Assembly: GCA_016209735.1 (NCBI GenBank) | Contig: JACQVN010000009.1 | Location: 30,381 to 94,380 of the forward strand | Origin: Candidatus Methylomirabilota bacterium | Lineage (GTDB): Bacteria > Methylomirabilota > Methylomirabilia > Methylomirabilales > 2-02-FULL-66-22 | Length of the DNA: 64,000 nucleotides | Direction of reading: 5' to 3' | Shown: piece after piece, positions 9,628 to 55,208 of the stretch | Layout: the number at the start of each line of letters is the position of its first letter | How positions within the stretch are numbered: position 1 is the first letter of the stretch | Notes under the pieces: generated by a model | The model's database searches: none | What the model saw: only the letters and a program-made list of their open reading frames with translations | Told to the model about the DNA's origin: nothing | Position numbers and translations under genes: made by a program

Positions 9628-11535
9628 TTGGCTGCTAAGCGCACGACCCTCATCCTGCTCGTCGTCTCGGGCACACTCTTCTTCACGCAACTGGGCGGGA
9701 CCGGCCTCTTTGACGCGGACGAGCCGGCCTACGCCCAGGCGGCGCGGGAGATGCTCGCACGCGGGGACTGGATCACGCCGACCTTCAACGGGGCCCCCCG
9801 CTTCGACAAGCCCGTCCTATTCTACTGGCTGATCATGGGAAGCTACGCGGGCTTCGGGGTGAGCGAGTTTGCCGTGCGCCTTTGGTCGGCGCTGGCCGGG
9901 ATGGCCCTGGTCCTGCTGACGGCCTGGGCGGCTCGGCGCTGGCTTCCGCCATCGGCGGACTTCTGGGCAGGCGTGGCCCTGGCCACCTGCTTTCTCACCG
10001 CGCTCCTGGCGCGGGCCGCGGTGACGGACATGCTCCTTGCCCTCTGCGTCACGGCAGCCATCCTGGCGGGAGTCGCGGCCCTGGAGGTGCCAGACCGCGC
10101 AGAGCGCATGGCGCACAGGGCACAGGGCACAGGGCATGGCGCACAGGGCATGGCGCACGGCGCAGAGCGCACGGCTTACGACGCACAGGGCACAGTGCTC
10201 GACGCACAGGGCACAGCGCTCGGCGCACAGCGCACGGCGCACGGTGCACAGCGCTCGGCGCGCGGCGCTGGAAGCTGGGCTCTCTTCGCCTGGGCCGCCA
10301 TGGCGTTGGCCGTCCTGGTGAAGGGCCCCATCGGTCTTGTGATCCCCGCGATCACCTTCGGCCTCTCCCTGCCGGCAACCCGGGAGGTCCGCTTCGGCCT
10401 CCGGCGGCTCGTCCCCTGGCAGGGTCTGTTGCTCTTCCTGTGTCTCACCTTGCCCTGGTACCTTCTGGTCCTCCGGGCCAACGGCTGGGCCTTCGTCGAG
10501 GGTTTCGTCATCAAGCACCATTTCACCAGGTACACGGGGGTGGTCTCCAGCCACGCGGGGCCGTTCTGGTTCTACCTTCCCGTGCTCCTGATCGGCTTCT
10601 TTCCGTGGAGCGGGTACCTGCCGTCGGCCGGCTGGCGGGCCTGGCAGATCCTGCGGCGGCGGAGGGCCGAGCGGCATGGAGATCGGTTGATCGTTGTCTG
10701 CGCCTGCTGGGCGGCGGCGGTGTTCGTCTTCTTCTCGCTGGCCGGGACCAAGCTTCCGAGCTACCTGTTCCCCGCCTTCCCCGCCCTCGCCCTGCTGGTT
10801 GCGGGGCTCGGAATTTCAAATGAAAAATGCAAAATGAAAAACCGGCCAACGGAACAGACGGTTGCCCGGTTTTCCATTCTCAATTTTTCGTTTTCCATTG
10901 ACCAGCCGCGCATCGACGCGCGCCTGGTTCGCCTGGCGCCGTGGCTCATCGGCGGCGTCGGCGCGGCGCTGGCCATCGGCTTCGCCCTGCTTCCGTGGAT
11001 CCTGGAATTGGCGCGACCGGCCGCCCGGGGGATCCTGGATGGAGTCGAGGCGCCCACCGCCCTGGCCTTCGGGCTGGCGGGGCTTCTGGGTGTGGGCACG
11101 ACTACAGGCCTTTGTGCGTCGGGCTGGCGGCGCCCGTCCATCCTGGCAGCCATGATGGTCGGAGTGATTCTGGCGGCCGCGCTGCTGGCGGCGCCCAAGG
11201 CGCATGCCATCTTGCAGGGTGCGCTCAGGGAGTTTAGCGACGATGCTCGCCGCCTGGTGCCGCCGGACGGCACGGTGGTCGCGTATGGACTGAATGCCCC
11301 AAGCATAGTATTCTACGCGGAACGCCGGGTTCTCCCGTTGGGGCCCGGCACCCCGGACGGTCTCGATCGGATCCAGCGCCTGCTCGCCGAAGGCCGGCCC
11401 ATCGTGGTCATCTCCCGCAGCGCGCACGCCCCGATCCTGGATCGCGTTCCCGGGCTGATTCGCGGGAAAGCCCGTAGCGGGTTCGCGATATATTGGCCTC
11501 GGGCGGCTAGTCAGATTTCCGCTGCCCCACGGTAA
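9628..11535 (+). CDS. GT39/ArnT-like (PMT_2) membrane glycosyltransferase with two in-frame repeat insertions
   Basis: N-terminal LFDADEPAYAQAAREM...GDWITPTFNG.PRFDKPVLFYWL is characteristic of ArnT/PMT-family enzymes, and the protein has many TM segments. At 635 aa it is about 85 aa longer than expected, matching the two inserts. Confidence 0.8.
   Translation: MAAKRTTLILLVVSGTLFFTQLGGTGLFDADEPAYAQAAREMLARGDWITPTFNGAPRFDKPVLFYWLIMGSYAGFGVSEFAVRLWSALAGMALVLLTAWAARRWLPPSADFWAGVALATCFLTALLARAAVTDMLLALCVTAAILAGVAALEVPDRAERMAHRAQGTGHGAQGMAHGAERTAYDAQGTVLDAQGTALGAQRTAHGAQRSARGAGSWALFAWAAMALAVLVKGPIGLVIPAITFGLSLPATREVRFGLRRLVPWQGLLLFLCLTLPWYLLVLRANGWAFVEGFVIKHHFTRYTGVVSSHAGPFWFYLPVLLIGFFPWSGYLPSAGWRAWQILRRRRAERHGDRLIVVCACWAAAVFVFFSLAGTKLPSYLFPAFPALALLVAGLGISNEKCKMKNRPTEQTVARFSILNFSFSIDQPRIDARLVRLAPWLIGGVGAALAIGFALLPWILELARPAARGILDGVEAPTALAFGLAGLLGVGTTTGLCASGWRRPSILAAMMVGVILAAALLAAPKAHAILQGALREFSDDARRLVPPDGTVVAYGLNAPSIVFYAERRVLPLGPGTPDGLDRIQRLLAEGRPIVVISRSAHAPILDRVPGLIRGKARSGFAIYWPRAASQISAAPR
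10096..10265 (+). repeat. (GCACAGSG)n-type array inside the ArnT-like CDS, in frame
   Basis: Encodes AHRAQGTGHGAQGMAHGAERTAYDAQGTVLDAQGTALGAQRTAHGAQRSARG. The units are the same as in the intergenic arrays at 3290-3372 and 34444-34650. Confidence 0.85.
10812..10900 (+). repeat. AT-rich AAATGCAAAA-type hairpin inside the ArnT-like CDS, in frame
   Basis: aaatgaaaaatgcaaaatgaaaaaccgg ... ccggttttccattctcaatttttcgttttccatt. Same family as 36141-36230 and 38596-38688. Confidence 0.85.
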
Positions 11536-12964: not shown

Positions 12965-13148
12965 CGGTTCACGGTGCGGCGGTTCACGGTGCGGCGGTTG
13001 GGGCTCCAGCGGTTCACGGTGCGGCGGTTCAAGCCTCGAAGTGTCAACCTTGAACCTTGAACCTCGAACCGTCAGCCTCGAACCCTGAACCTCGAACCTT
13101 CAACCGTGAACCGTCAACCTCGAACCTTGAACCGGAAACCTTGAACCC
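12965..13148. repeat. (GGTTCACGGTGCGGC)n followed by (GAACCTYG)n arrays
   Basis: Three 15-mers, then about 12 GAACC-containing octamers, running up to the lepA start. Confidence 0.85.
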
Positions 13149-13152
13149 CCGT

Positions 13153-14955: not shown

Positions 14956-15092
14956 AATGCAAAACCGACAACCGACAAGTTAAAATGCAAAACGGACAAC
15001 CGGCAAGTTAAAATGCAAAACCGGCCTGCCTGCGCCGCGGGCGCGGCAGGCAGGCAACCGACAAGTTAAAACCGACAAGGGACGACCGGCGA
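14956..15092 (+). repeat. Left arm of an AT-rich foldback (AAAACCGACAACCGACAAGTTAAAA units, with an embedded CCTGCCTGCGCCGCGGGCGCGGCAGGCAGG palindrome)
   Basis: Starts at the lepA stop codon. A 25-nt identity to the reverse complement of 15787-15837. Confidence 0.85.
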
Positions 15093-15486
15093 ATGGTTGG
15101 ACGACAGCCGCTCGATGAGCAAGACAGGAAACGCGGGGACGAGCTTGCCGAGCGCTTGCTCGATTTCTCCGATCAAAATCATCGCCTTGGCGTCCCGCCT
15201 TCCCGGTGATCCAGTTGGCCGGCACATCTCCAACCAGATGGTCAGGGCCGGGACATCGGTCGGCGCTCACTACGAGGAAGCGCGGGGAGCCGAAAGCCGA
15301 GCCGATTTCGTCCACAAGCTTGGCGTGGCACTGAAAGAATGCCGGGAGGCGCGGTACTGGCTCAGGGTTGTCCACCGCGCCAAGATGATTCCGGACGATC
15401 TTCCCGGGGCCCTCATCTTGAAGGCCAACGAGCTGTGCGCGATCCTCGGACAGTGTATCCTCACCGCGAAGTCTCGACAGGACTGA
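15093..15486 (+). pseudogene. Four-helix-bundle protein (23S rRNA IVS protein / Avd-like, PF05635 type) with an apparent 1-nt frameshift near 15168-15176
   Basis: Frame A from ATG 15093 gives ...DELAERLLDFSDQ. The frame of ORF 15097 gives IIALASRLPGDPVGRHISNQMVRAGTSVGAHYEEARGAESRADFVHKLGVALKECREARYWL. Together they reproduce the family pattern ER.IDF..RII.L...LP. The shift lies in gatcaaaatcatc. Confidence 0.65.
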
Positions 15487-15883: not shown

Positions 15884-16552
15884 ATGGCACCGAAGACAAA
15901 GGAAAACGAAGTAGCGGTTGGGACGCGGCCGGTGGCCACGCCGAAGTCGGTCCTCCGGGAGTACGCGGAGGCGCTGATCATCGCGGTCCTGCTGGCCTTG
16001 GTGATCCGGACCTTCGTGGTCCAGGCGTTCAAGATCCCCTCTGGGTCCATGCTCCCCACCCTCCAGATCGGCGATCACATCCTGGTCAACAAGTTCCTGT
16101 ATCACTTCCGCCCCATTCAGAGGGGCGACATCATCGTCTTCAAATTCCCGCAGGACGAGAGCCGAGATTTCATCAAGCGGGTGATCGGTCTGCCGGGGGA
16201 AACGCTGGAGGTGCGCGGGACGCAGATCCTCATCAACGGCCAGCCCGTGAAAGAGCCCTACGCGGTGTTCAGCGATGGAGCCTTGGGATCATCCGGCGAA
16301 CGGGACCGGATGGGGCCCATCACGATTCCGCCGAACCGACTGTTCATGATGGGGGACAACCGGGATCACAGCATGGACAGCAGGTACTGGGGTCTCTTGG
16401 ATGAGGCCAAGGTCAAAGGCAAGGCCTTCCTGATCTACTTCTCGGTGCGGAGTGATGATATTCCCACCGACTCCTCGCTGGGGAGCGTCGCCTACGTCCT
16501 TGTGCATCCATCCTTGATCCGCTGGGGACGGTTCGGCCACCTGGTGGAATGA
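15884..16552 (+). CDS. lepB: Signal peptidase I
   Basis: IPSGSMLPTL (catalytic Ser), GDHILVNKF, KRVIGLPGE (catalytic Lys box) and GDNRDHSMDSRYWG. Confidence 0.9.
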   Translation: MAPKTKENEVAVGTRPVATPKSVLREYAEALIIAVLLALVIRTFVVQAFKIPSGSMLPTLQIGDHILVNKFLYHFRPIQRGDIIVFKFPQDESRDFIKRVIGLPGETLEVRGTQILINGQPVKEPYAVFSDGALGSSGERDRMGPITIPPNRLFMMGDNRDHSMDSRYWGLLDEAKVKGKAFLIYFSVRSDDIPTDSSLGSVAYVLVHPSLIRWGRFGHLVE

Positions 16553-16554
16553 GA

Positions 16555-16628
16555 TCAATGCAAAACGGACAATGAAAAATGCAAAACCGGCCATTGACGG
16601 AGGGATGGCTGTCGCTTTTTCATTAGCC
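16555..16628. repeat. AAATGCAAAA-type AT-rich repeat directly after the lepB stop
   Basis: atcaatgcaaaacggacaatgaaaaatgcaaaaccggccattgacgg... Confidence 0.7.
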
Positions 16629-36140: not shown

Positions 36141-36230
36141 TGTAAAATTGAGAATGCAAAATGGAAAACCGGCCAACGGAGGCCGGCCATTGGACGGTTT
36201 TGAATTGTCAGTTTTACCTTTTGCATTTCG
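36141..36230. repeat. AAATGCAAAA-type AT-rich hairpin
   Basis: tgtaaaattgagaatgcaaaatggaaaaccggcc ... ggccattggacggttttgaattgtcagttttaccttttgcatt. Confidence 0.75.
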
Positions 36231-36332
36231 CATGGGTGGCGTCCTGGCGGTTTCGCCGTGTTGAATCGGAGTCAGCGCCAATACTGTTCACATAGCTCGC
36301 ATAGCGTCGGACACTGGCGCTTGCGTTCGAGC

Positions 36333-38110: not shown

Positions 38111-38593
38111 ATGGAATTCCAGGCGGTGAAGATCGAGACTCCGGAGGGGGCCAACGTCATCCTGGGGCACAGCCACTTCATCAAGACCGTCGAGGACCTT
38201 TACGAGATCCTTGTCACCACGCTGCCCGGGGGCAAGTTCGGCCTGGCTTTTTCCGAGGCCTCGAGTCCCTGTCTCATCCGATCTGCGGGAAACGACGAGA
38301 CCCTGCGCGAAGTCGCGGTGCGCAACACCCAAGCGGTTGCGGCAGGCCACTTCTTCGCGGTGGTTCTCAAGCAGGCCTTCCCCATCAACGTGCTGAACGC
38401 TCTCAAACAGTGTCAGGAGGTCTGCAGTATCTTCTGTGCATCGGCCAATCCGGTGGAGGTCATCGTGGCGGTCACGTCCCAGGGACGGGGGGTCATGGGG
38501 GTGGTGGACGGCTTCCCGCCGAAGGGGGCAGAGTCCCCCGCGGATGTCGCGGCTCGGAAGGAGTTCTTGCGGAAGATCGGATACAAGATGTAA
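38111..38593 (+). CDS. Adenosine-specific kinase family protein (PF04008-like)
   Basis: GHSHFIKTVEDLYE, FGLAFSEAS.P.LIR..GND, AFPINVLNALK, NPVEVIV...QGRGVMGVVDG, and FLRKIGYKM match the archaeal/bacterial PF04008 pattern as I recall it. Confidence 0.7.
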   Translation: MEFQAVKIETPEGANVILGHSHFIKTVEDLYEILVTTLPGGKFGLAFSEASSPCLIRSAGNDETLREVAVRNTQAVAAGHFFAVVLKQAFPINVLNALKQCQEVCSIFCASANPVEVIVAVTSQGRGVMGVVDGFPPKGAESPADVAARKEFLRKIGYKM

Positions 38594-38595
38594 GA

Positions 38596-38688
38596 GCAAT
38601 GCAAAATGAAAAATGCAAAATGAAAAACCGGTCAATGCTGCTGGCCATTGCTCGGTTTGCAATTTTTCATTGTCCGTTTTGCATTGAT
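38596..38688. repeat. AAATGCAAAA-type AT-rich hairpin directly after the stop codon
   Basis: gcaatgcaaaatgaaaaatgcaaaatgaaaaaccgg ... ggtttgcaatttttcattgtccgttttgcattg. Confidence 0.8.
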
Positions 38689-38708
38689 TGTCTTGCCCAG
38701 AGGGGCAG

Positions 38709-54203: not shown

Positions 54204-55208
54204 ATGCCCCGTGGCCCGCGACTGGATGCCCCCGGCGTTCTGCACCATGTCATGGTGCGAGGCCTGGATCGGCAGGTCATTTTCCGAGATGACCGGGACC
54301 GGGACGACTTTGTCGCGCGCCTCGCCGGTCTTGTTGAGGCAGGCGCGTGGACGATTTATGCCTGGACGCTTCTCCCAAATCACGCCCACCTGCTCGTGCG
54401 GACGGCCCGGCGTCCACTGGCACGTACCATGCGCTCGCTCCTCACCGGGTATGCGGGCACCTTCAATCGGCGGCATAAGCGGAGCGGACACCTCTTCCAG
54501 AACCGCTACAGATCCATCGTGGTCGAGGAAGATCCATACTTTCTCGAACTCGTCCGCTACCTCCACCTCAATCCATTGCGGGCCGCTATCGTCACTGACT
54601 GGCGGGCATTGGAGCGTTATCCGTATTGTGGGCACGGAGCGATCCTCGGGAAGCAGGAGGTTGACTGGCAGGAAACAAGTGCGGTCCTCCGCCAGTTCGC
54701 AGAGCGCCTGCCCACCGCGCGGGCACGATACCGGACCTTCGTGGCGGAGGGTGTCTCTCGCGGGCGACGGCATGATCTGATGGGGGGCGGCCTCATTCGT
54801 AGCGCTGGAGGGTGGGCCGCCGTAGCCGTCCTTCGCCGCGGGCGTGAGCGGTATGCAGGCGACGAACGGATTCTGGGCAGCAGTGAATTCGTCGAGACGT
54901 TGCGTGGGGAGATCGAGCGGACGGAAGCCGGGCGCCTGCACGCGAGGTGGCGCAAGCTCACCGCAGCTGCTCTGATAGCACGGATAGCTACTGCCGAGAA
55001 GGTCCCTGTGGAGCGTCTTCTGGGCTCGGGCAGGCCCCGGACAGTCTCTCGGATCCGTCGGGGCCTCGCCTACCTTTGGGTCGAGGAACTGGGCAGGAGC
55101 GGCCGGGCCCTTGCCCGGGAGCTTGGAATCTGTCCGGAAGCAATCTACCACGCGGCAGTGCGGGGACGGAAGGAAGCCGTGTATTGGCAAGCAATGCTGG
55201 AATCGTAA
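54204..55208 (+). CDS. IS200-like Y1/HUH transposase of the REP-associated (RAYT) type, with a C-terminal DnaA_C-like HTH
   Basis: HVM.RG..R..IF.DD.DR..F, the HUH motif LLPNHAHLLV, GHLFQNRY.S, and the catalytic Tyr region YFLELVRYLHLNP. The C-terminal RIRRGLAYLWVEELGRSGRALARELGI is HTH-like. GGAGG RBS. Confidence 0.75.
   Translation: MPRGPRLDAPGVLHHVMVRGLDRQVIFRDDRDRDDFVARLAGLVEAGAWTIYAWTLLPNHAHLLVRTARRPLARTMRSLLTGYAGTFNRRHKRSGHLFQNRYRSIVVEEDPYFLELVRYLHLNPLRAAIVTDWRALERYPYCGHGAILGKQEVDWQETSAVLRQFAERLPTARARYRTFVAEGVSRGRRHDLMGGGLIRSAGGWAAVAVLRRGRERYAGDERILGSSEFVETLRGEIERTEAGRLHARWRKLTAAALIARIATAEKVPVERLLGSGRPRTVSRIRRGLAYLWVEELGRSGRALARELGICPEAIYHAAVRGRKEAVYWQAMLES

Follow-up and report, generated by a model that had tools for sequence, protein, structure and literature searches.

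Cyanobacterial STRR sequences and other intergenic heptamer arrays consist of 7-nt units in tandem, homogenised within each array. The same holds for the arms of a hairpin at positions 10812-10900 of the window (i.e. the whole stretch of 64,000 nucleotides that was analysed), but here two arrays face each other in inverted orientation across a conserved core, the genome is that of an uncultured member of the NC10 group with a GC content of 66%, and one copy is coding. In that last respect the locus resembles the Rickettsia palindromic elements (RPEs), dispersed palindromic repeats that can lie open and in frame within a conserved gene and then presumably add a surface or loop segment to the protein without destroying it (PMC10969869): here too the element interrupts a conserved ORF in frame and leaves it open. 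RPEs, however, measure about 100-150 bp, encode a conserved peptide and are intragenic in nearly half of the copies, whereas our family has one intragenic copy in about 44 and consists of tandem 7-nt words of changing identity, with no conserved peptide beyond the words. The peptide varies freely, no Rfam or other family matches the site, and the element appears unrelated to RPEs in sequence.

The Correia/nemis elements and bacterial MITEs are alike in that they are short, non-autonomous inverted repeats, located chiefly at the borders of genes and now and then within them, and in the case of Correia/nemis the mRNA hairpin is, as here, a potential RNase III substrate; the present element, however, appears to lack IS-type terminal inverted repeats, shows no target-site duplication at its junctions, and could be assigned no cognate DDE transposase. 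REP and REPIN sequences, which RAYT (Y1 HUH) transposases mobilise, are likewise short palindromes outside genes, many of them immediately 3' of a stop codon, and they too have a conserved hairpin open to recognition by a protein acting in trans. Three Y1_Tnp proteins are encoded in the genome; none of their genes is flanked by family hairpins, the element ends carry neither a GTAG nor a CGTC tag, and no mobilising enzyme was identified for the element. A RAYT link was therefore rejected. Closer at hand are the ORF-bearing 23S rRNA intervening sequences (PF05635, 'S23p'), as words of this family also flank a PF05635 gene (14957-15486). The genome has six PF05635 genes, each enclosed between inverted arrays of 7-8-nt words, and the hairpin thus looks like a cargo-less form of such a cassette. 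It differs from these intervening sequences in lying outside the rRNA and in having no ORF, and the conserved frame makes its excision from RNA unlikely. Finally, replication template switching creates and maintains hairpins (PMC8794818) and thereby offers a selection-free route to joint change of both arms, as seen here between distant lineages, which makes it a candidate mechanism. A literature search on repeats of Methylomirabilota returned nothing.

The hairpin and its parts are the following.

10812-10900, + strand: in-frame heptamer-armed hairpin repeat (codons I-S-N ... F-S-I; the first Ile codon, ATT, begins at 10813)
10818-10850, + strand: left (A-rich) arm, units AAATGAA / AAATGCA / AAATGAA / AAACCGG
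10838-10873, + strand: family core and central stem-loop, AAAACCGGCCAACGG-AACAGA-CGGTTGCCCGGTTTT, of A4-stem-U4 shape
10861-10893, + strand: right (T-rich) arm, encoding the hydrophobic half FSILNFSFSI

The element is an AT-rich, imperfect repeat of 89 bases, the 101-nt interval around it having 44% GC as compared to 66.4% for the genome. Its inverted-repeat arms measure 33 nt, are 82% complementary and are spaced by 10 nt, the units TTTTCCA / TTCTCAA / TTTTTCG / TTTTCCA standing opposite those of the left arm; no two adjacent units are identical in this genome, where the hairpin is partly decayed. The minimum free energy of the RNA of 10805-10905 is -30.9 kcal/mol, against -19.9 +/- 2.9 kcal/mol for 200 dinucleotide shuffles (z = -3.76; none of the 200 equally good), and the core hairpin (ACCGGTCAATG...CATTGACCGGT) folds at -15.3 kcal/mol. 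One of the three forward frames is stop-free across the hairpin, namely that of the ORF 9628-11535, in which the hairpin reads as ISNEKCKMKNRPTEQTVARFSILNFSFSI (in the fuller reading GISNEKCKMKNRPTEQTVARFSILNFSFSID). The ends, AATTTCAAATG and CATTGA, are imperfectly inverted and no direct repeat flanks the junctions; since the insertion is old, a target-site duplication could have eroded.

An earlier note on this DNA had pointed out an AT-rich, terminator-like hairpin in frame in an ArnT-like gene of a GC-rich genome, of a type otherwise found directly after stop codons. Position, base composition, fold and frame agree with that description, and the hairpin does belong to the intergenic family (heptamer arms plus core). 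The term 'terminator-like' applies loosely, i.e. to the A4-stem-U4 shape of the core, but an intrinsic terminator scan (GC-rich stem, loop of 3-8 nt, then at least 5 T in 8) does not call the hairpin, the core stem having internal mismatches and being followed by UUUUCCAU. Searches with Rfam covariance models at gathering score gave chance-level matches only (20 bits vs 128 and 40). The expected impediment to elongation is not to be anticipated in any strong form either, because the 101-nt hairpin interval (about -30 kcal/mol) folds less stably than the other intervals of the gene (-42.4 +/- 6.6 kcal/mol).

Two further features concern the host gene.

9628-11535, + strand: host gene, an ArnT/PMT-like (GT39/GT83-type) membrane glycosyltransferase of GT-C fold
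10096-10265, + strand: second, unrelated in-frame insert of the host gene, made of GC-rich 7-8-nt words with a 21-nt period (peptide AHGAQGT...)

The ORF comprises 635 aa; the source gene call, with a start 41 codons later, has 594 aa. The protein matches Pfam PMT/PMT_2 and finds its best PDB match in ArnT (5EZM, E = 6e-41), but scores 179 bits against the NCBIfam ArnT equivalog, under the cut-off of 567 bits, and it may thus be called ArnT-like by fold and Pfam only. Full-length orthologues are 52-79% identical. Both halves of the gene diverge most at third, less at first and least at second codon positions (pos3 > pos1 > pos2), which indicates purifying selection on each; the half downstream of the hairpin is accordingly not decaying, and together with the 86 of 87 orthologous loci that are open this refutes a pseudogene. 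In the AlphaFold2 model residues 359-384 (594-aa numbering; add 41 for the ORF) form a coil with pLDDT < 50 between helices 335-354 and 390-412.

Members of the same repeat family occur at several other places in the window.

14957-15486, + strand: array of the same word family (AATGCAA / AACCGAC / AAGTTAA), then a PF05635 (23S rRNA IVS protein) ORF
16555-16620, + strand: partial family copy directly 3' of the lepB stop
36141-36232, + strand: family copy in the spacer upstream of hisA, core again ACCGGCCAACG
38597-38690, + strand: intergenic family copy in the spacer between a PF04008 gene and hisIE, its 28-nt left arm identical to that of the in-gene copy

The family consists of 44 AA-N5 heptamer hairpins in the assembly of 1.69 Mb, of which 14 have the core, and its architecture is that of two inverted arms of tandem 7-nt units beginning with AA (TT opposite) around the core AAACCGGYCAAYG. 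The in-gene element has both the AA- and TT-starting units on inverted arms and the core (AAACCGGCCAACG at 10839-10851). The core AAACCGGYCAAYG has 31 matches in the genome, as compared to about one for permuted motifs, and was found in 16 of 20 same-genus genomes, while the motif AAATGCAAAATGAAAAA (at most 3 mismatches) occurs 14 times in the 64-kb window with none expected. Positions 10818-10845 of the left arm are identical over 28 nt to 38604-38631, in the intergenic copy 28 kb away; a close relative of the right arm was not found elsewhere in the genome. The array at 14957-15486 is a cargo-bearing relative of the family.

Three of these copies had been said to follow stop codons immediately. 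For two this is correct: the copy at 38597 follows the stop of the PF04008 gene (38591-38593) and the one at 16555 that of lepB (16550-16552). The copy at 36141, in the spacer upstream of hisA, has no identifiable ORF whose stop directly precedes it. Some ORF spans 20 of the 44 hairpins; these were judged by translating the eight longest ORFs and by the GC3 of all. Only the ORF that spans 10812-10900 has GC3 values of the coding type on either side of the hairpin (0.91 and 0.84), and that hairpin is the sole copy found inside a real gene (1/44), a far smaller intragenic share than that of RPEs. The other spanning ORFs were discarded as antisense nonsense or gene ends (e.g. the lysS 5' leader), and only some 25% of the frame-orientations of the other copies are stop-free.

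Comparison with orthologues shows that the hairpin is not a recent insertion. Of 15 same-genus orthologues covering the site, 13 have a hairpin there; two of these are strongly changed, G018 having a remnant of 24 nt and G017 a GC-rich derivative. Methylomirabilota (NC10) as a whole yielded 67 distinct orthologous DNA loci, about 42 of which have a hairpin at exactly this position, always in frame; with dozens of independent assemblies having the element at this site, an assembly artefact is excluded. Outgroup families have a loop of 11-12 aa instead and some same-genus genomes are also without the hairpin. Left-end remnants or mini-palindromes persist in L116, L014 and L093. The insert ranges from 24 nt to about 190 nt and the loop from about 9 aa (loci without the element) to 71 aa. 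Nevertheless, nearly all lineages agree in reading frame and in where the insert starts and stops (GG|AATTTCAAAT ... TTTTCAATTG), and the only frameshift among the 87 loci falls outside the repeat. As the basal within-genus nodes of the gene tree are unresolved, one gain and several are not strictly separable. The hairpin had also been taken for a second independent insertion in the gene; independent it is, since only this genome has the array at 10096-10265 while the hairpin is common to dozens of relatives, but it was inherited and is not new. It is an old, tolerated passenger, neither a fresh insertion nor a proven regulator.

The way in which the element changes differs from that of the surrounding gene. 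Substitutions inside it are spread evenly over the three codon positions and are mostly non-synonymous. Together with the low-confidence coil and the normal selection downstream, this implies that the peptide is tolerated and that it is the DNA that is conserved. Compared with 4-fold sites, divergence within the element is two to four times slower (0.09 vs 0.34, 0.07 vs 0.31 and 0.25 vs 0.51). Units are homogenised within an arm, for instance GTTGTCA x4 in L124 against GTTGTCC x4 in L125. Across 22 lineages 85.9% of the cells are paired and both sides have changed in 32 cells, versus 14.5 +/- 3.9 in shuffles, a signal that is inflated by relatedness and by the choice of arms, which were placed relative to the core and retained only with 16 or more of 21 positions paired. 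Pairs of close relatives show pair-breaking changes only, without compensatory double changes. The covariation between distant lineages and the 28-nt arm identity point to repeat-type DNA dynamics; slow divergence and arm covariation also fit selection on a functional structure.

Taking these observations together, we consider it probable that the hairpin is an old, cargo-less copy of a foldback repeat in a permissive loop of a functional glycosyltransferase, renewed by DNA processes of the repeat type. A word-armed foldback repeat of NC10 would have entered the loop between two transmembrane helices early in the genus-level clade and would since have formed part of the gene's mRNA and, as a disordered loop of 29 residues, of the encoded protein. 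Host selection would act on the open frame only, while the DNA would change as repeats do, with units being turned over and homogenised, insertions nesting inside it, its central part being deleted and short patches probably being copied from the opposite arm or another copy; the effect on expression would presumably be small. More tentatively, the hairpin could be continually rewritten, by template switching from arm to arm or by copying from family members recognised via their conserved AAACCGGYCAAYG core, which would keep a translated loop of a housekeeping membrane enzyme palindromic and AT-rich past synonymous saturation; the family would then be the cargo-less form of the PF05635 word-armed cassettes and an undescribed mobile or self-renewing element, an extension that we hold possible rather than probable.

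The slow, position-independent divergence, the covarying arms and the A4-stem-U4 core could instead mean that the hairpin is kept for a cis action on the mRNA, be it as partial terminator or attenuator, as RNase III entry site of the Correia/nemis kind (cleavage of Correia-containing transcripts by RNase III is documented; PMC10969869), or as a ribosome-pausing structure just after a transmembrane helix, and would thereby tune the level or membrane insertion of the glycosyltransferase. The hairpin indeed folds at z <= -3 in 17 of the roughly 42 loci. In at least 9 lineages, however, it is no better than shuffled sequence (z > -1), in several it has been deleted to footprints and in others it contains nested inserts; if one adds the pair-breaking changes of close relatives, the outgroups and same-genus genomes that do without the element, and a hairpin that is no called terminator, has no Rfam match and is less stable than the rest of the gene, a cis function appears unlikely. 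Quite unlikely, in our view, is also a hot spot at which the loop or its small palindrome repeatedly attracts new hairpin copies, so that not all copies share one descent. Very close relatives do have very different inserts (G003 vs G011, G016 vs G019), the same loop holds other repeat families in P0057, P0115, L013, L089 and L144, a 24-nt mini-palindrome is seen in G018 and L093, and the left arm in this genome is identical to that of another copy; but with equal outer boundaries and frame in nearly all lineages, and no lineage having two different junctions, it is more parsimonious to assume a single ancestral insertion that later turned over internally.

Two further readings would have the host profit from the insert itself. 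Since 7 is not a multiple of 3, slippage of units might switch a surface-glycan enzyme on and off, as in the phase-variable glycosyltransferases of host-associated bacteria, and four perfect tandem heptamers do lie inside the ORF in L124 and L125, as does a second array of 7-8-nt words in the same gene of this genome (G000). Such a contingency locus is very improbable given that 86 of 87 assemblies are in frame, that the lone frameshift is not in the repeat and that the arms in this genome are without identical adjacent units. Hardly to be expected, too, is recruitment of the peptide as a useful segment, e.g. an amphipathic linker or interaction loop: the recurrent hydrophilic-then-hydrophobic pattern (KPTTDNR...RLSVVGCQFSI) follows directly from an A-rich arm and then a T-rich one, and the long retention of the translated frame is set against evenly distributed, mostly non-synonymous substitutions and a loop of pLDDT < 50 that varies widely in length and in some lineages is a footprint.

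On the reading as an old, tolerated foldback repeat, intergenic heptamer-armed hairpins of NC10 can persist very long inside a working gene. One locus by itself adds little, but the site, orthologous throughout and constrained in frame, offers over 40 copies that evolve independently, and these amount to a natural experiment that could separate the ways in which palindromes persist, i.e. structure selection, template switching and gene conversion. The site can also reveal insertion-tolerant loops of GT-C glycosyltransferases, and it holds a warning for annotation, in that an AT-rich island of this kind in a GC-rich gene should be taken neither for a frameshift nor for the scar of a pseudogene. 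The tryptic peptides predicted from the insert are NRPTEQTVAR and FSILNFSFSIDQPR.

The AT-rich insert at 10812-10900 is best read as an old and tolerated member, translated by inference, of a class of heptamer-armed hairpin repeats that appears to be undescribed. The earlier note had placed a hairpin here in frame within an ArnT-like gene, and this proved real with respect to the arms, the fold and the open reading frame. The element, AATTTCAAATGAAAAATGCAAAATGAAAAACCGGCCAACGGAACAGACGGTTGCCCGGTTTTCCATTCTCAATTTTTCGTTTTCCATTG, encodes the peptide ISNEKCKMKNRPTEQTVARFSILNFSFSI within an ORF of 635 codons, and each of the two remaining forward frames across it is interrupted by TGA. The source assembly (1.69 Mb, 62 contigs, ~69% complete) has a GC content of 66.4%.

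Features of the window considered in the text
9628-11535, + strand: host ORF, ArnT/PMT-like glycosyltransferase (594 aa in the source's gene call)
10096-10265: first insert, a separate in-frame array in the same gene
10812-10900: in-gene hairpin
10818-10850 and 10861-10893: inverted-repeat arms of the hairpin, 33 nt each, 82% complementary, 10-nt spacing (repeat finder)
14957-15090: array of the word family of the in-gene hairpin (AATGCAA, AACCGAC, AAGTTAA), preceding a PF05635 ORF
15178-15447: PF05635 gene (C55:45558)
54243-54566: Y1_Tnp (PF01797) gene (C55:84623-84946)

As RNA, the stretch 10805-10905 folds at -30.9 kcal/mol, against -19.9 +/- 2.9 in dinucleotide shuffles (z = -3.76), none of the 200 shuffles matching it, and a 17-mer motif occurs 14 times in the window at up to 3 mismatches where 0 are expected. 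The host gene is predicted to encode an ArnT/PMT-like GT-C glycosyltransferase, in view of its Pfam matches (PMT and PMT_2), a score of 179 bits to the NCBIfam ArnT equivalog that stays under the 567-bit cut-off, and its sole PDB relative by sequence, ArnT 5EZM (E = 6e-41), the alignment with which ends exactly at the start of the hairpin. Its closest named orthologues (52-59% identity) all derive from Candidatus Methylomirabilota / NC10 MAGs. AlphaFold2, supplied with a 30-sequence alignment (mean pLDDT 78, pTM 0.79), models the insert as a coil with a pLDDT below 50 (residues 359-384 in the 594-aa numbering, to which 41 is added for the ORF), placed between helices 335-354 and 390-412. The earlier note had also considered that the downstream half of the gene might be decaying as a pseudogene. 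Relative to L086, the closest relative with DNA (77% aa identity) and our reference for both halves, the divergence at codon positions 1/2/3 is 0.17/0.14/0.33 upstream and 0.16/0.11/0.31 downstream of the element, so that the downstream half is not decaying.

In a search for A-rich arrays of 7-nt periodicity with a T-rich counterpart no more than 70 nt downstream, the assembly yielded 44 hairpins. Tandem heptamers make up their arms (AATGCAA, AATGAAA, AATGGAA, AACCGAC, AACGGAC, AAGTTAA and others); CAATGAC and ACGTAAA are the words of separate sub-families, and a type built on CAGATTT came from a broader AT-island screen. The core AAACCGGYCAAYG is common to 14 hairpins, including the in-gene copy, has 31 genome matches at no more than one mismatch (0-3 for permuted motifs) and occurs in 16 of 20 same-genus genomes in 1-8 exact copies (0-2 for the reversed control). 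Of the copies previously cited as lying immediately after stop codons, three in number, two do so, i.e. after a PF04008 gene and after lepB, and the third is located in the spacer upstream of hisA. Intragenic status was judged by ORF and GC3 rather than by gene caller: some ORF spans 20 hairpins, the GC3 on the two sides of the in-gene copy is 0.91 and 0.84, and the other spanning ORFs are antisense nonsense ORFs or gene ends (eight longest translated; GC3 of all). By this criterion the ArnT-like copy is the only convincingly intragenic one among the 44. At lepA (13057-13150) the longest ORF opens with a repeat-derived stretch (32 letters) before the conserved 19 letters; the ORF finder has probably run through a word array of the intergenic spacer here, so that this start would not be the true N-terminus.

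An alignment of same-genus orthologues has an insert at the exact position of the element in almost all sequences. The insert peptides are alike, not identical (e.g. ISNEKPTTRNRSIE..RLSVVSCRFSI), and lacking in the most distant orthologue; at the DNA level each same-genus insert is a heptamer-unit hairpin, mostly AACCGAC / GTCGGTT, with a constant reading frame and constant outer ends (AATTTCAAAT ... TTTTCAATTG). Addition of 79 metagenome loci and one ENA contig yielded 67 distinct site sequences. Around 42 of these carry the element (loops of 26-71 aa), three or four loci have only a footprint (the left end AATTTCACATGAGGA in L116, a 24-nt mini-palindrome in G018 and L093), and a GC-rich loop of 8-12 aa takes its place in several same-genus sequences and in all those from outgroup families. 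The gene tree leaves the base of the genus without resolved branching, and one early gain followed by losses is the parsimonious reading, short of proof. The first insert, composed of GC-rich 7-8-nt words with a 21-nt period (peptide AHGAQGT...), is present in the source genome alone and absent from all 29 other aligned orthologues, a 79%-identical one included, and is therefore recent, unlike the hairpin. The two inserts thus represent independent events of very different ages. Their independence, as claimed earlier, is thereby upheld, and the orthologue comparison makes the hairpin itself a feature common to relatives at the exact site.

The site is open in 86 of the 87 loci that possess the upstream KLPSY motif. 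The exception (L015, G012:C8) has a 1-nt frameshift ~10 codons downstream of the element and outside it, caused by one additional T (GGGTTCATGG in place of GGGTCATGG); either this orthologue is a pseudogene or its assembly is in error. Insert lengths range from 24 to ~190 nt, all length changes being multiples of three despite the 7-nt units, and among other family members just 25% of the frame-orientations lack stop codons. Together these observations favour an insert that ribosomes read and that is not removed from RNA or protein. Within the element, substitutions are spread evenly over the three codon positions (e.g. 5/1/3, 4/4/2 and 9/11/14; twelve pairs) and changed codons are mostly non-synonymous (synonymous vs non-synonymous 2 vs 7, 1 vs 9, 5 vs 17). 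In the more divergent pairs its total divergence is nevertheless below that of 4-fold sites of the same genes (0.09 vs 0.34, p = 8e-7; 0.07 vs 0.31, 0.23 vs 0.45, 0.25 vs 0.51, 0.32 vs 0.62, 0.34 vs 0.64), a 2-4-fold gap that alone is no proof of selection, as AT-rich sites and GC-rich third positions may mutate unequally. The peptide is thus under no protein-type constraint, and there is some nucleotide-level conservatism.

Between close relatives, each stem difference disrupts pairing in one of the two sequences, and no compensatory double changes were found between their stems. The source copy has four pair-breaking changes relative to L086, and the same 102 nt fold at -30 kcal/mol in the former vs -43 kcal/mol in the latter. 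Of the ~42 element-bearing loci, 17 retain a fold with z <= -3, and in at least 9 the fold does not surpass that of shuffled sequence. In distant lineages the arms are wholly different (AATGGAA / TTCCATT vs AACCGAC / GTCGGTT), with pairing retained. Over 22 lineages 85.9% of arm cells pair (18-49% with the register slid), and both-side changes occur in 9 of 21 pairs. The cells changed on both sides number 32 vs 14.5 +/- 3.9 in shuffles (a value reached by 0 of 500), a test that is indicative only since the 21 nt per arm were core-anchored by choice, only arms with at least 16/21 paired were admitted and the sequences are related. Together with the unit and arm changes described below, this suggests that the hairpin decays slowly by point mutation and is occasionally renewed by processes that affect entire units or arms. 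The locus owes its value to its many orthologous copies, which show both the shallow decay and the deep covariation. Replication template switching is a documented process that changes both arms together without selection (PMC8794818). Very close relatives (G003 vs G011, G016 vs G019) differ by nested GC-rich palindromes or a replaced centre, and units are uniform within an arm (GTTGTCA x4 in L124 vs GTTGTCC x4 in L125). The latter two loci (contigs Ga0209182_10014751 and Ga0182010_10036896) hold four perfect in-ORF tandem heptamers with the same base differing in every unit, a case of concerted evolution of a coding microsatellite. The 28-nt left arm at 10818-10845 is identical to 38604-38631, the left arm of the intergenic copy that separates hisIE from the PF04008 gene, and the two right arms are unrelated; the next-nearest family members are off by 2-4 or more positions, and the source genome holds no right-arm relative within 7 mismatches. 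Two of the changes relative to L086 both disrupt pairing and produce identity with 38604-38631, so that a short conversion patch between dispersed copies may be involved, two sites being too few to establish it.

An effect on elongation had been expected of the hairpin. The core folds as AAAA-stem-UUUU (-15.3 kcal/mol), which is the shape of a weak bidirectional terminator, and termination may well occur at the intergenic copies. The in-gene copy was not called in a consensus terminator scan and lacks the defining features of canonical intrinsic terminators, its core stem having internal mismatches and only four U following. The folding-energy comparison with the flanks ran counter to the expectation: 101-nt windows over the element reach -30 to -36 kcal/mol, weaker than the average of -42.4 +/- 6.6 for other windows of the gene. 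The element is unusual as a single long regular hairpin, not by stability. Throttling of the host gene is not favoured by the comparative data. RNase III cleavage has been demonstrated for Correia elements (PMC10969869), and by analogy the enzyme could act on the long imperfect duplex here.

The element behaves most like the Rickettsia palindromic elements, dispersed palindromes that lie in frame within conserved genes, where they are tolerated as additional loops (PMC10969869). In contrast, the hairpin studied here has no conserved peptide, its arms are tandem words around a core, and only 1 of 44 copies is intragenic, differences that place it outside that family. The GTAG or CGTC tag that defines REP/RAYT elements is missing, no target-site duplication as in IS-derived MITEs is seen, and no Rfam family matches the element. 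We found no paper on repeats of Methylomirabilota.

The ORF following the array at 14957-15090 matches PF05635 (23S rRNA intervening-sequence protein; E = 4e-16). Six PF05635 genes are present in the source genome (C25:64540, C61:18841, C55:113292, C55:137046, C55:45558 and C31:44798), each between inverted arrays of a different 7-8-nt word (GGGGGAG, CGGCAGTA, GGCACTCT, GGAGACG, AACCGAC/AAGTTAA and GTGGACG). Given the shared word family, the hairpin looks like a cargo-less form of these cassettes, an association for which a mechanism is not demonstrated. The three Y1_Tnp genes of the genome (that in the window, C61:39211 and C60:40869), two of which carry a long extension at the C-terminus, are not flanked by heptamer hairpins.

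The glycosyltransferase loop is a general sink for repeats: in P0057, P0115, L013, L089 and L144 the orthologous loop hosts other families, i.e. arrays of the AQSAE type, resembling the first insert in the source genome, and nested GC-rich palindromes encoding SRLRASREPQPNASTQAD. The repeat is also a place where assemblies tend to break, three metagenome contigs (L130, L131 and L132) terminating within the hairpin.
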